DNA of 64,000 bases from a virus: the IMG/VR virus record IMGVR_UViG_3300044712_002706, positions 12,663-76,662 of that record, one strand, 5' to 3'. The first letter of the stretch is position 1. Each line of letters starts with the position of its first letter. The position numbers are program-made. Shown one piece after another: positions 30,001 through 45,000 of the stretch.

Positions 30001-33000
30001 GATAATAACGGCAACGTGATCGGCTACAACCTGCTGGGCTTCGACATCCCCTACCTGATGCGGCGCTCGATGGCGCTGGGGCTGAAGCTGCCGATGATCC
30101 CCTTCATGTCCCGCTACCGGGTGGAGCCGGTGACTGACTTGTACGCCATTCTGTACAACTGGGGGCCAGGCAAGGGGCTGAAGACGGTGTGCAAGATGTA
30201 CGGCATCCCAAACCCGCTGCCGGAAGTGGATGGCAGCCAGGTGGCCGGGATGGACGCGGCGATGCTGCGCCAGTACGTGTGCAGCGACGTGCTGCTGACG
30301 GCGGCGCTGTTCAGCAAGATGAACGGGATTTACTTCTCGCTCTAAAAACAAATTTTGTTGGGAGGTTTGTATGGATCAGAATCAGAATGCAGTTTTGTTT
30401 GTTGGATATCTCACGCTCGAGGAGTGGCTTCGGGCAGTGGATAAGAAGCGCCCGGTGTTTGCCGTGATGACGGCAACCGATGAAACGATGAGCTACATCG
30501 TGCGACGTGAGATAGTCATTGAAGTGGCGCAACCGGAGAACGTCCAGGCTATGGTGCATTACTGCCGCATTCTTGCCGGGCGCATGTCGTTTATGGGCGA
30601 CTCCCCCGTCGAGAGCGATCACCCTGTGCGCACCGAGCGAGCACAGGGTTTGATGCGCATCATCGAGACCTGGCTGGAAGAGAAGGGGTTGACGGTGCTG
30701 CACGGGGCAATTGCCACGCCAATTGGGATGCAGTTCGTGAAAGGTTGGGCGGATTTCGTAACACTCGACAAGGCCACGCAAATGTTTGTATGGCCGGCGC
30801 ATGATGCGCAGGAGGCTCTTGACAAATCATAGACCGTTTGTGCTATAATGACAGCGGCGACATGTTCTCCCTGTTTTCCACTTGTTCTCCCTCCTTAGAA
30901 GACTTTCCCCGGTTCCCCTCGCCGGGGAAAGCGCTTTAAGACAGCTTTATAAGTAGACCGAGTGTGCTATAATATGCGTGCCCGTTGGCAGGTTGCCCCC
31001 CTCAATCTGCGACGGGCCTCCCTTCAATACCCATATTTTAAAATTTTATTGGTAAACCCGGCCCGCTGACGAGCGGGCCGGTGCGGTTTATGAACTATGG
31101 ACAAAGTTTATACTCGTTCCATTCGAGTTTCTTGATAGCGGGGTCGTCAGAAAGAACATAAAAAGTTCCAGAAGATACAATAGAATCCCGATCTTTCCAC
31201 CCTGTTGTTCCGTCTGGGTACTTCACCTTTAAGCCTTTTCCGCTGGGCATGGATGGGCAGTCGCTGGAGCCGCCCAATATCTCGAAAGCGTAGGTTTTTT
31301 CTTCTCCTCCCCCATAGTAAATCTTTACGCCAGCGTAGACTTTCGCAAGTGGAGATGAGTATTTTTCCGCCGTTTTTGTTGCTTCTTCTGTTGGGTGTGG
31401 CGATGATGGTGCAGAAGAGTCCCGTGGCTGAAGTACAAAATAAGCAATGATGATCGCCGCAATCGAAGCGAAAAAAGTGTACTTGAGACACGAGTTTCCC
31501 TGTCGTCTCTGTTGGTGTTCTCCGAACGTTGTCATGATTGGCTCCTTTTTGATAGATATATGGATATGTTGTCCCATGTGTAAATTATATCCCCGAGTGC
31601 TTGCGCGCAAGCACTACCAGCAAATATGCAGTACAATTGTTCTGCAAAGGGTCTGATGTATGACAAACAGTCCGGCTGCGGAACAATTGAGCGAGCGGGA
31701 AATGATACAGGTTGCGAATAGCCTCGTGGCGCACATCGGCACGAAGCGGTTTATCTTACTGGCCCAACTATTAGAAGACGTGAAGAAAGATACCCGGTAT
31801 GGCCACATTTCTATTGTGGTGGTAGACGGCCGGGTGCGGGGGATGAAGGCGGAGAAGAGCTATGAATAGTACCAAAATCCTGTATAATTAATTTAAGCCT
31901 ACGCCGTAGGCCTTGACCCTAGAGCACTGGGTATCCAGCGGGGTCGTTTGCAGTTTATTCTGCAAACGACCCCGCTTTTTTGTTGTTTTGCTTAGGAGGC
32001 AATATGAAAAACAATCGTGTGATCAACCTGGTTTTATCGGCCCTGATGCTGGTGGCGCTGATTTTCGTGTCTGCGCACCCGGCCAGTGCCCAAGCTCAAA
32101 CACCACCGGCGTCTGTGGATGCGTGGCTTGCGTTCGGCAAGGAAATTGCCACGCGGGGGGCGTGGTTGGGCCTGATCATCCTGCTCGACCTGATCTTGGG
32201 CGTCACCGTGGCGGTCAAGAATAAGACATTTCAATGGCAGAAGCTGGCGGACTTCCTCGGCGATTATGGGCCGAAGGTGGTGGGCTGGCTGTGTCTGGAA
32301 GTGTTACGGATGCTGCCGACGGATGTTGCTGCCGTCGCCGGCGTCGTGGGTACATTGGGCGTTGGCGCGTATGCCATCATTGTAGTAGCGGCTGTGGGCA
32401 GCGTGCTCAGCAGTGCCCAGGGCCTGGGGATAGTTCCGGCCAATGCGCCGGGGGTTTCGGCGAAGGGCTAATATCTTCTCGGACAAATGCAAGATAGCAC
32501 AACATGGAAGCACTGTACACCTTCGCACTCGCCCTAATCCCCGCCCTGATTGCCTATCTCGCCAGTCGAGCCAGGAACCGTTCTGACGCCGCCGAAATCA
32601 TCACCCGGGCGGCGGCGCAGGCGGTGAAACTGACCGAGGAGCTGCTCGAGGATGCTAACCAAACGATAGAAAAGCTAAAGACGGATTACGGTAAATTGCA
32701 GGAGGATTACAGCGAGCTGAAGTGCCTGTATCACCAGCAAGTGGACGTAAACCGAGACCTGCGTGAGCGCGATGCCCAGCGAGAACTCGAACTCGCCAAA
32801 CTGAAAGAGCAATACGAGAGCCAGATATTTGTCAATCACGAACTATCCAAGCGCAACAAGGCGAACGAGCGCGAACTCTCGCAGCTGAGGCAGAAGATAT
32901 TCGACATCGAGAGAAAGACCGGCCCCTTGAGCGATAGAGAGAAAGGGAGACAAGCCGTAAGTCAGTAACGGCGGAAATCATGATCAACGGCAAAGGCATA

Positions 33001-42000: not shown

Positions 42001-45000
42001 CGGCGTCAATGCTGGCCTGTTCCCGGCCAACATTGGCAAATACGAGAATGGCGACTTCGATCACCGCTTTGCCAATCGGGATGTGTTCCCGCTTTCAGAT
42101 ATTGACGTGGCCGAAGTGGTCAAGGCGGACGTGGACGCCGGCATCCCGCTGGTGACGTCATTGCGCAAGCGTGGCTGGAGCGAAGCCGATATCAAAGAGA
42201 TGGAGAAAGATAAGGCAAAGGAAAAGAAAGCGAATGCGGCAAGCCTTGGCCAGGCGCTGCTGAATGCGCAGCGCAACTTCGACGCCGGCGGACAATCTTT
42301 GGATGACCCCGCAACAGGGAACCCTGCGGCGGGTAACGCTGCACGAGACGTAAACAGCACGGTAGGAAACGGCATCGTAGACGAGGCCGAAAACCATGCC
42401 TGACCCCCTGGTGGTAAGCATGGCTCAACAGTTTCGAGACGCCCTCCTGCGCCGCGAGGCCGTCCAGATGCAGGAGATGGCGACGCGCTGGCTGCAGGTG
42501 GAGCGGGTTCTCGACCTGGCGTTTACAGCGCTGGCCTTCGAAGCCCAGACGAGCGGCCCGCTGAGCGAGGCGAAGCTGGCGAAGATGGAACGCTACCAGG
42601 CCATGTTGGCCCAGGTGCAAAGCGAACTGGCCCGCTACAACCAGTATGCGGCCACGACGATGACGGCTGAGCAAGGAATGAACCTGACCCAAGGCATCGA
42701 GGACGGTAACGCTTTGCTGGCTGCTGCTGGGGCGACGCCTGGCTATCGGATTTCAATGGCGGCGGTGGAGTACGCTGCCGGCTTCGCCGGCGATGGCACG
42801 CCGCTGTATAAGCTCTTGCAGGACGGTTACGGGGAGACGGCAGCGGCGATCACGCAGCAGCTCATCACGGGCGTGGCGATGGGGATCAACCCAATCGCCA
42901 ACGCCCGCAGGATGCGGGATGCCTTCGGGATGTCTTTTGACCGCAGCTTGTTAATTGCCCGCACCGAGCAGATCAGGCCATACCGCATGGCGAGCCTGGG
43001 GCAATACAAGGAGAGCGGCGTAGTGGCCGGATATCGGCGGGTAGCAGCGAAAAGCCTGCGCACGTGCATCGCTTGCCTGATTGCCGATGGGCGGTTCTAC
43101 CCGCTGGACGTTCCCTTCGAAGAGCATCCGCAAGGAAGATGCACGCCGATCCCGGTAGTGATTGGGATGCCAGAGATTAAATACGAGACCGGCAAGACGT
43201 GGTTTTTGAAACAGGGCGATAACGTACAACGCCAACTGATGGGTGCGGGGAAATTCTCCGCATGGAAGGATGGCAAATTCGACCTGGAGCAGATTGTCAA
43301 ACTGCACGAGGATGAGACGTGGGGCAATAGCCTGGTGCCCACGCCGCTTGCCGATTTACTAGAATAAATAATCTGCTATAATCAATTTAAGCCTACTATG
43401 CGTAGGCATTCGACCCTAGAGCACTGGGTATCCAGCGGGGTCGCTCACAGTTTATTCTGTGAGCGACCCCGCTTTTTTTGTGCCCATTACGCCCCCGGGA
43501 GCGGCAATCTCGGAAAGGAAAATAGACGATGTTGTTCAAGCCCAAATCAGGATTGTGGTTCGCACCCAGCACGGACAACGCCACCGGGACATCACCCGTT
43601 CAGACACCGGATACAACGCCGCCGGCTGAGCCAGGTGGGTCGAACGGCGGAGCAACTGGGCCACAAGCTACCGCGCCGGCGTCACCGGCGGCGACCGCCA
43701 AGCCGCTGACGTTTGAGAGCGAAGAGAAGCTGGAGAGATACATCGAGGATGCTCTGAAAGAGCGCTTGGAGCGTGCACAGAAGAAGGCCGATAAACTGGC
43801 CGCAGAAGCCCGCGAGAAGGCCGAAGCCGATGCTGCCGTCAAAAACGGCGAGTGGCAGAAGTTGGCCGAAACACGCGAGAGCAAGCTCAAAGAACTTTCG
43901 GCGCAGCTCGAAACCATCCCCGGATTACAGACCAAAGCTGAGCGTTACGAGAAGGCACTCAACGCCTACCTGGCGACGCAGCGCTCTGGACTGCCAGCAC
44001 ACGTGACCGTGCTGCTGGATAAGCTCGACCCGGTGGATCAGCTCGAATACATCGCCAAAAACCGTGAAGCGCTCAGCCAAAACGTGAGCATTGCGAACGC
44101 TGGCAGCGCCCACATCCCACCCACGCCCACTGCGGGAAACCCAGGCCAGATCACATCTGAACAGATGAACCAGGCCCGGCAAGCGCAGCTGGCGCGGACA
44201 AAGAGTAATTTTTAGTAACAGGAGTATTCCATGACTGATTTAGCGTTAGTCACTGCAAACCGCCTGTATCTGGTTGAAAGTCTGGAGCAGATGACCCTGC
44301 CCGCTGTGGAAGCGATTGTGGCGGGCCAGTCTGTTCGGATCGACACCAGCACAGGCAAGTTCACCAAAGCCAATGGCACCACGGCCGCAGAAAAGCGGGC
44401 GTATGGCATGGCACTCAAGACCGTGGCCGCCGGGCAGCCGGTGACGGCGGTTCGTAAGGGTGTGGTAGATGGGTACGATTTATCGGGCCTGGCCTACGAC
44501 GCCGATGTATATTTGTCGGATACCGATGGAATGCCGGCGGACGCCGCAGGCACCGTCGAGCGGAAAATCGCCAAGGTTATCCCAGCCTTTGCCACCACCC
44601 TGGGAACGGCGGCAGATAAACTGCTGCGCGTGGATTACAACGAAGGCGAGCAATCGCAGGTATTGGTTGTCACCAGTGAATTACTGGCAGCCAGCGTGGA
44701 TAAGTGGATGTTCGTAGCCGACCGCCCTTACCAGGTGACCGGCGTCCGTGAAATCCATAGCGTTGTTGGCGGGTCCGGCGCAGTGGTACGCCCTCGCAAG
44801 GTGACCGCTGCCGGAACCGACGCCCCCGGTGCTGCAGCTGGCACGACCGTGAAGGAATTGACCGCCGCCGACATCGGCCTGGAAACCACCATCAACACCA
44901 CCCAAAGCCCGGCGCTTTCGGCCACCGCTGCCGACCTGCTGTTGGCCGCCGGTGACAAAATCGGCCTGAACCTGGGCGGCACATTGACCGGCTTGGTGGG

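Follow-up and report, generated by a model that had tools for sequence, protein, structure and literature searches.

The 64,000-nucleotide (nt) stretch of DNA analysed here, referred to as the window, lies within an IMG/VR provirus record of 76.6 kb (IMGVR_UViG_3300044712_002706). Each of two late operons in the window starts with a leader, leader 1 at 31883–31982 and leader 2 at 43377–43480, in which a short RNA element overlaps an intrinsic terminator, and a small gene, named gp69 here, is situated just upstream of the first leader (Table 1). Membrane-protein genes, followed by the genes for the small and large terminase subunits, lie downstream of leader 1. A first-pass annotation of this region had proposed that the leaders represent a duplicated antiterminator/terminator switch, controlled perhaps by the 69-amino-acid (aa) product of gp69.

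The description of the leaders given in that annotation was borne out in every detail. An identical 32-nt core is present in two exact copies, at 31915–31946 and 43412–43443, where none would be expected from shuffled sequences, and no third copy occurs elsewhere in the whole 76.6-kb record. The TATAAT of both leaders is preceded by TG and followed by AATTTAA and a GCCTAC/GTAGGC hairpin, with a loop of GCC in copy 1 and of TATGC in copy 2. This 5′ hairpin is found in this prophage only, and not in the related loci described below. The two terminators are the two strongest terminator-like sites within 24.5–44.4 kb, and their upper stems (TTTGCAG/CTGCAAA versus CTCACAG/CTGTGAG) covary, the three positions at which they differ each being compensated. 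The folding energies of the whole leaders are −48 and −52 kcal/mol, with z scores of −7.6 and −9.1. When the core is cut before the 3′ strand of the terminator, it folds into a bulged hairpin, in which a helix termed P1 (GACCCU/GGGGUC) encloses a second one termed P2 (CUGG-GUAU-CCAG), the two helices being separated by an internal loop with six bases in its 5′ strand and one C in its 3′ strand. The two folds are mutually exclusive, because the 3′ strand of P1 sits inside the 5′ strand of the terminator. Just one copy of the motif is present in each of five related viral records, of which three are at least 90% complete, and the second copy is therefore peculiar to this prophage. A leader peptide was ruled out as an explanation of the conserved segment; the sole open reading frame (ORF) spanning the leader starts with TTG, has no Shine–Dalgarno sequence and is not conserved.

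Relatives of this locus were collected by means of the gp69 protein alone, which yielded 7 + 24 loci from viral and metagenome contigs, some of them duplicates. The usual order of features downstream of the gp69 gene is TATAAT, R-ACCYUAGAGnA, a hairpin, CGGGGUY, the terminator, AAGGAGG and a membrane-protein gene. A covariance model (R1) was built from 13 copies of the motif, with only P2 and the terminator entered as structure. R1 detected one motif, on the same strand and downstream of gp69, in the window and in all 26 of the loci searched, even where none was visible by eye. The motif lies within 100 nt of the gp69 gene in 19 loci, approximately 0.5 kb away in 4 and 2–4.7 kb away in 3, and in all 26 it precedes a terminator, a ribosome-binding site and late genes. 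Homologues of the first gene of late operon 1 come after the leader in loci L005 and L009. In an all-versus-all comparison of the ORFs from 13 loci, gp69 was the sole family common to all, the next commonest being present in 6. The terminase of locus L004 is unrelated to that of the window, and the gp69–RNA pair therefore persists through mosaicism. Searches for relatives based on the terminase found none in genome_contigs or viral_contigs, and a search of genome_contigs with the gp69 alignment also found none.

The covariation analysis was performed on 19 distinct copies of the motif (alignment A4), aligned with a model that lacked P1. Positions in P1 and P2 were paired in 94.2% of cases, with both sides changing in 7 of the 10 pairs; when the partner strand was slid by 1–3 columns, pairing fell to 34–58%. 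P1 has 6 bp. P2, of 4–5 bp, is free in sequence, and its versions include CUGG/CCAG, CAGGG/CCCUG, CUAGG/CCUAG, CCGGG/CCCGG, CCGA/UCGG and GCGG/CCGC. The lower stem of the terminator is 97.7% paired, and the strand that it shares with P1 covaries with both its P1 partner and its terminator partner. The most telling case is column 33, where G is replaced by A in three rows from two sequence subgroups. The P1 partner changes there from C to U, whereas the terminator partner stays C and forms an A·C mismatch. Since P1 is compensated at this column despite the mismatch in the terminator, P1 must be selected in its own right. U·G pairs are frequent in P1 (14 of 19 rows at one pair), and the structure is therefore specific to the transcribed strand, i.e. 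to RNA. The internal loop contains an invariant AGA and a nearly invariant A on its 5′ side and an invariant C on its 3′ side. Because the sequences are related, counts from shuffled alignments overstate the significance of these results, and it is the slid controls and the independent compensations that carry the argument. Covariation of both helices would be expected of an RNA that alternates between two exclusive folds, and these alignments strongly support such a switch, in agreement with the antiterminator/terminator reading of the first-pass annotation.

No Rfam family matched at gathering scores over the whole window, and a permissive Rfam search of the window region and eight related loci gave no match at the motif; boxA/boxB and put stem–loops were unmatched at either threshold in the same sequences. 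Among isolated phages (INPHARED), neither gp69 nor the RNA motif is present. The possibility that P2 is a DNA operator was ruled out, its stems changing sequence while they keep pairing and use G·U pairs. Readings of the loop as a K-turn, a PyrR site, a TRAP site or a CsrA site, were dropped; the strand asymmetry and the sequence are unsuited to them, and the Rfam PyrR family was unmatched. The RNA switch is real, conserved and previously undescribed.

The association was also examined in the reverse direction, from the RNA to the protein. Loose IUPAC patterns for three motif subtypes were used to collect 176 viral loci (1.5 Mb) from IMG/VR. Most of the matches to these loose patterns arose by chance, and the loci were screened with R1, which gave matches, among those listed, in L124, L140, L162, L177 and L199. 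The gp69 hidden Markov model matched in five pattern-derived loci and no others, namely four of the five R1-positive loci and L217. The motif of L177 is without gp69; this locus covers only a short piece of its contig, and the gp69 gene of that contig is located 4.7 kb upstream. L217 carries gp69 and an exact pattern match and lay outside the R1 screen; it derives from the same contig as L009, which has the motif. The two remaining exact matches to the refined type-1 pattern were in coding sequence, with no hairpin or terminator. A further 15 loci, fetched via a homologue of the late gene at 32980–34083, contained neither the motif nor a close relative of gp69. The motif and gp69 were thus found only together in the other viral DNA examined, approximately 1.7 Mb. 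This strict co-occurrence in both directions, as seen in the sequences collected, supports a link between the protein and the RNA, as had been suggested for the 69-aa product.

Four non-redundant loci of the 15 fetched by way of the late gene do encode a distant gp69-like ORF, scoring 19–29 bits (27–62 bits once added to the profile). These ORFs are located 0–1.3 kb upstream of a TATAAT promoter, behind which come a leader that differs in sequence, a strong terminator and a Shine–Dalgarno sequence. In three of the four, the 5′-terminal AGCYC of the leader, its first five bases, pairs with GRGCU of the 5′ strand of the terminator, through U:A, C:G or U:G pairs. Read by eye from few sequences, the second leader would look like the same design written in other letters, resembling a diversifying matched protein–RNA pair.

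Some further features of these distant loci are recorded here. At L220:3290–3490, and identically in L221, a distant gp69-like ORF (3057–3272) precedes direct repeats of approximately 12 nt (ACTTGTAAAGGC-like), four or five in number, and then a promoter and a leader of 137 nt, which has two hairpins containing CCCAGAGC as well as a terminator and lies directly before a holin-like gene. Just after the distant gp69-like gene of L227, at 2165–2260, a consensus promoter (TTGACA...TATAGT) is situated inside an inverted repeat, TGACAATAC/GTATTGTCA, which gives it an operator-like look; there is no leader terminator at this site.

The 69-aa ORF at 31660–31869 is a real, conserved gene. An exhaustive HMMER search found 25 homologues, all small proteins of 54–100 aa, and a profile search with the gp69 alignment returned 29 proteins, each unnamed or labelled hypothetical; a single-sequence word-index protein search matched only gp69 itself. 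The family is one of rare small proteins, known so far only from metagenomes and previously undescribed. Its conserved core extends to the extreme C-terminus (...DTGYGxVxIVxxDGRVxxLKAEKSY). In the first-pass annotation the protein was likened to DUF2292 (Pfam PF10055), and this claim held in part. Weak matches to DUF2292 were obtained for 14 of 26 aligned family members, with a best E value of 2.4e-4, but membership of the family is not supported for gp69 itself, which scored 12.9 bits (E value 0.087; 12.6 bits in a six-frame search) against a gathering cut-off of 22 bits. No relevant family was found in NCBIfam. DUF2292 is a family with no known function that receives only passing mentions in the literature searched, and a search of that literature for YezD/OscA yielded nothing but OSCA channels of plants.

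A confident model of gp69 obtained with AlphaFold2 from the family alignment (mean predicted local distance difference test (pLDDT) value 89) has helices at 12–26 and 28–44 and strands at 48–55 and 58–66, i.e. a predicted helix–helix–β-hairpin fold. gp69 is also predicted to form a homodimer. The model of the dimer scored 0.68, compared with 0.00 for the best of three controls, and the mark set for this score is attained by 20 of 30 proteins solved as one-chain pairs and, among those solved as single chains, by 1 of 23. In the homodimer runs, contact agreement was at least 93% and partner pLDDT at least 80, and the first strands of the two copies pair together. A search of PDB sequences gave only insignificant matches, to the C-terminal helices of MarR. 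No structural relative was found in the PDB by Foldseek at E ≤ 0.001, the best Z score in a wide VIA-align search was 3.6, and comparison of the model with BFVD gave nothing at E ≤ 0.001. No solved structure of a DUF2292 protein was found in the PDB sequence and structure searches. A protein atlas gave leads, and leads only, to clusters from viruses, Acidobacteriota and Chloroflexota; a structural lead, again no more than that, points to a YezD cluster, with which the model provided by the atlas aligns at template-modelling scores of 0.56 and 0.74 over 46 residues. As a separate observation, K66 of the window protein (...LKAEKSY) is replaced by H or R in exactly five loci, those in which the RNA loop reads UCAGAAYA and not UAGAGnA or UAGACnA. 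This variation may reflect a specificity contact, or shared ancestry alone.

The promoters and terminators of the leaders indicate where control is likely to be exerted. A perfect TATAAT is present in 19 of 19 leaders, many of them with TG upstream and several with TTGACT, TTGAAA or TTTACA at −35, and the gp69 stop codon lies 13–46 nt from the −10 element in 12 of 18 distinct loci. From these sequences the late promoters appear to need no activator and, being near consensus, they imply that control must act after initiation. In 14 of 19 copies P1 begins 5–7 nt past the −10 element, which is where the first transcribed base is predicted to lie. The Shine–Dalgarno sequence of the first late gene follows approximately 10–25 nt behind the predicted T run, so close that there is no room for a further promoter, and the late genes must therefore be reachable only through the terminator. 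The predicted energy of the antiterminator hairpin is −7 to −13 kcal/mol, and that of the leader with the terminator −23 to −43 kcal/mol. As the terminator is far more stable, termination would be the default outcome, and something must stabilise P1/P2.

On balance, we lean modestly towards the view that this something is gp69, which would stabilise P1/P2, block the terminator and switch the late genes on. In the mechanism proposed, the strong promoter of each late operon would by default yield just a leader RNA of 60–90 nt, stopped at the promoter-proximal intrinsic terminator. After induction, gp69 would be made from the gene directly upstream of the leader and, probably as a homodimer, would bind the P1/P2 RNA, clamping the hairpin as it emerges and reading the invariant AGA...A/C internal loop together with the shape of P2. 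Stabilisation of the hairpin would be passive. Clamped in this way, P1/P2 would keep the GGGGUY strand from the 3′ strand of the terminator, so that the lower stem could not form beside the U tract; only the upper stem would be left, too distant from the U tract to terminate, and RNA polymerase would then read into the late genes. The duplication of the unit in this prophage is in keeping with such a mechanism, under which every terminator would require a site of its own.

A different explanation is that gp69 works processively, as the antiterminators N and Q of lambda do, and that the P1/P2 RNA or DNA merely recruits it to an RNA polymerase that then ignores this and later terminators. The gp69 gene occupies the position of lambda Q, directly before a constitutive late promoter and a promoter-proximal terminator, and antitermination by small phage proteins that bind RNA polymerase has precedents, an example being gp39 of P23-45 (PMC3351154). 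At the DNA level, many copies have a loop similar to a −10 hexamer (TAGAGT, TAGACT, CAGAAT), which could be a sigma-dependent pause site of the Q type; the window copies, however, read TAGAGC and lack the final T. Moreover, the motif is anywhere between 5 and 29 nt from the promoter, a variation unsuited to a promoter-fixed loading geometry, and P1 covaries with the terminator strand, as a pure recruitment site would not need to do. Pfam and PHROG scans of gp69 and eight other upstream ORFs found no match to the Q family (Antiterm, Phage_antitermQ and relatives), to N or to any other antiterminator family. Processive antitermination by gp69 is considered improbable.

It is also rather unlikely, in our judgement, that the P1/P2 switch is set by a host protein, by a small-molecule ligand, as in a riboswitch, or by RNA polymerase itself, in the manner of HK022 put, with gp69 linked to it for some other reason. 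The size of the motif and its conserved internal loop are typical of small ligand-binding RNAs, and gp69 has no known RNA-binding fold. Such a switch would leave unexplained a co-occurrence with gp69 that is strict both ways despite mosaic neighbourhoods, and the distant gp69-like genes accompany different leaders, which suggests a matched protein–RNA pair; nor was there a match to a riboswitch or put-like family in Rfam. That the leader is a stand-alone constitutive small RNA of the prophage or an insulator against readthrough, the late genes being expressed otherwise, can be given very little credence: a strong promoter and a strong terminator would indeed produce a discrete RNA of 60–90 nt, made in lysogens like lambda 6S RNA, but there is no space for another promoter between terminator and first late gene, and a simple small RNA needs no P1 that covaries with the terminator strand and is kept despite an A·C mismatch in the terminator.

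Several points weigh against the regulation by gp69 that is favoured here. The protein is not markedly basic, with a net charge of approximately +1; its fold is not recognisable as an RNA-binding one, and the PDB offers no structural match to it. In three loci the gp69 gene is 2–4.7 kb away from the leader. A DNA-binding regulator would also be compatible with L227, where the promoter directly after the distant homologue has a palindrome across it. The transcription starts, and termination at the T run, are predicted from sequence. Finally, all of the examples come from one uncultivated phage lineage, and the statistics for co-occurrence and for shuffled sequences are inflated by this shared ancestry.

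The broader possibility, put forward tentatively and regarded as doubtful, is that small helix–helix–β-hairpin proteins of the gp69/DUF2292-like type are unrecognised dimeric RNA-binding antiterminators of phage late transcription, which diversify together with their leader RNAs, of which no fewer than two types sharing one design were encountered, and that YezD and OscA might by extension be RNA-binding regulators. The extension to YezD/OscA is speculation, because membership of gp69 in DUF2292 is below threshold. Late-gene antitermination is a textbook subject that rests on few systems (N, Q and put) from cultivated phages. If the mechanism proposed for gp69 is true, a compact two-part module, consisting of a 31-nt RNA and a 69-aa protein, is added to them, and a protein family related to DUF2292 gains its first testable function. 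The module, if it works, may also provide an orthogonal transcription switch, being small and having apparently ordinary sigma-70-type promoters.

The coordinates of the features are collected in Table 1, and other observations on the prophage are as follows. The palindrome GCTTGCGCGCAAGC is dispersed over it, with 7 matches versus 0.6 expected; exact copies are at window positions 26751, 31599, 35944 and 58220, and copies with 1–2 mismatches at 34388, 62562 and 63043. One copy is 48 nt 5′ of the gp69 start codon, and others are within genes. A moron-like gene, equipped with AAGGAG and ATG, is situated on the minus strand between the early genes and gp69 (31095–31536); its 146-aa product has a single hydrophobic segment, at the N-terminal end. 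Plus-strand ORFs at 31205–31450 and 31447–31656 are probably spurious, the minus-strand gene with its Shine–Dalgarno sequence covering 31095–31536. Two near-consensus plus-strand promoters, at 30821–30849 (TTGACA-17-TATAAT) and 30946–30973 (TTTATA-16-TATAAT), each with TGC before the −10 element, have no ORF behind them and may drive small RNAs; the DNA downstream is C-rich and structured and ends in a GC hairpin at approximately 31060–31085. The large terminase subunit is encoded by two overlapping ORFs in different frames, 34657–35562 and 35516–36313, of which the N-terminal part matches positions 288–497 of phrog_38 and the C-terminal part positions 483–712. The split could be due to a frameshift or to an error in sequencing, or the prophage could be defective.

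Table 1. Features of the two late leaders of the prophage, and of leaders of the second type with distant gp69-like ORFs
Feature	Position	Strand	Remarks
gp69 gene (name used here)	31660..31869	+	69-aa protein; candidate antiterminator
Late promoter 1, −10 TATAAT	31883..31888	+	TG directly upstream; −35 region overlaps end of gp69 gene
5′ hairpin, copy 1	31897..31911	+	GCCTAC-GCC-GTAGGC
Antiterminator element, copy 1 (putative)	31915..31945	+	From fold and P1/P2 covariation
Parts of copy 1	P1, 31915–31920 with 31940–31945; internal loop AGAGCA, 31921–31926; P2, 31927–31930 with 31935–31938; C, 31939		
Intrinsic terminator 1 (predicted)	31937..31982	+	17-bp stem, TTTATT loop, T run; 5′ strand includes P1 3′ strand
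First gene of late operon 1	32004..32471	+	Membrane or secreted protein; AGGAGG at 31994–31999; terminase genes after
Late promoter 2	43355..43382	+	TTTACT, 16-nt spacer, TGC-TATAAT; TATAAT at 43377–43382
5′ hairpin, copy 2	43391..43407	+	GCCTAC-TATGC-GTAGGC
Antiterminator element, copy 2 (putative)	43412..43442	+	Same sequence as copy 1
Intrinsic terminator 2 (predicted)	43434..43480	+	17-bp stem and T run; three compensated pair differences from copy 1 in upper stem
First gene of head–tail operon	43529..44215	+	
Major head protein gene	45042–46133		In head–tail block behind copy 2, with tail genes
Second leader type	L222:9017–9086, L223:9040–9111, L227:3473–3543		TATAAT, 5′-AGCYCAGCGAGGCAU..., strong terminator; before late genes
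Distant gp69-like ORFs	L222:8043–8291, L223:8466–8672, L227:1913–2164		0.4–1.3 kb upstream of second-type leader

The gp69 system may be compared with those already known. It is unlike the ANTAR antiterminators, in that no ANTAR match was found in Pfam and the RNA is a single bipartite hairpin with loops of 2–7 nt, not a pair of hexaloop hairpins. With DUF2292/YezD, gp69 shares a C-terminal β-hairpin motif (...YGxVxIxVxDGxVxxIxxxEK...), to which it adds an N-terminal helical hairpin that DUF2292 lacks. The p7 protein of Xp10 is a small phage antiterminator that binds RNA polymerase. As a small phage-encoded candidate for passing intrinsic terminators, gp69 resembles p7 and also P23-45 gp39, which acts by binding RNA polymerase (PMC3351154). 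It has no similarity to either in sequence or fold, and these proteins are not known to need a specific RNA site.

As in lambda N/nut and HK022 put, a promoter-proximal RNA structure would decide whether a terminator is read through in a temperate phage. Unlike the N system, no arginine-rich N-like protein and no boxA/boxB is found here. HK022 carries two copies of put, one per operon; put acts without a phage protein and overlaps no terminator. The arrangement of lambda Q/pR′/qut/tR′, the source of 6S RNA, is similar in that the regulator gene is just before a constitutive late promoter, a short terminated leader is the default and all late genes come after the terminator. Q proteins are processive and bind both to DNA and to sigma-paused RNA polymerase, whereas the conserved element of the prophage covaries at the RNA level and overlaps the terminator.

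In BglG, SacY and LicT, a small dimeric domain stabilises the ribonucleic antiterminator (RAT) hairpin, each terminator needs its own site, and the targets are sugar operons. The prophage leaders share with the RAT system a short internal-loop hairpin that overlaps the 5′ strand of an intrinsic terminator and is weaker than it. They differ in the regulator, gp69 having no CAT or PRD domain (the only Pfam match being the sub-threshold one to DUF2292) and, at 69 aa, no room for a PRD, as well as in the predicted helix–helix–β-hairpin fold, in the unrelated RNA sequence and in serving phage late operons, not sugar operons. If gp69 acts as proposed, the switch is a new form of protein-controlled antitermination, one in which the logic of the sugar-operon antiterminators is carried out by an unrelated protein fold on an unrelated RNA.

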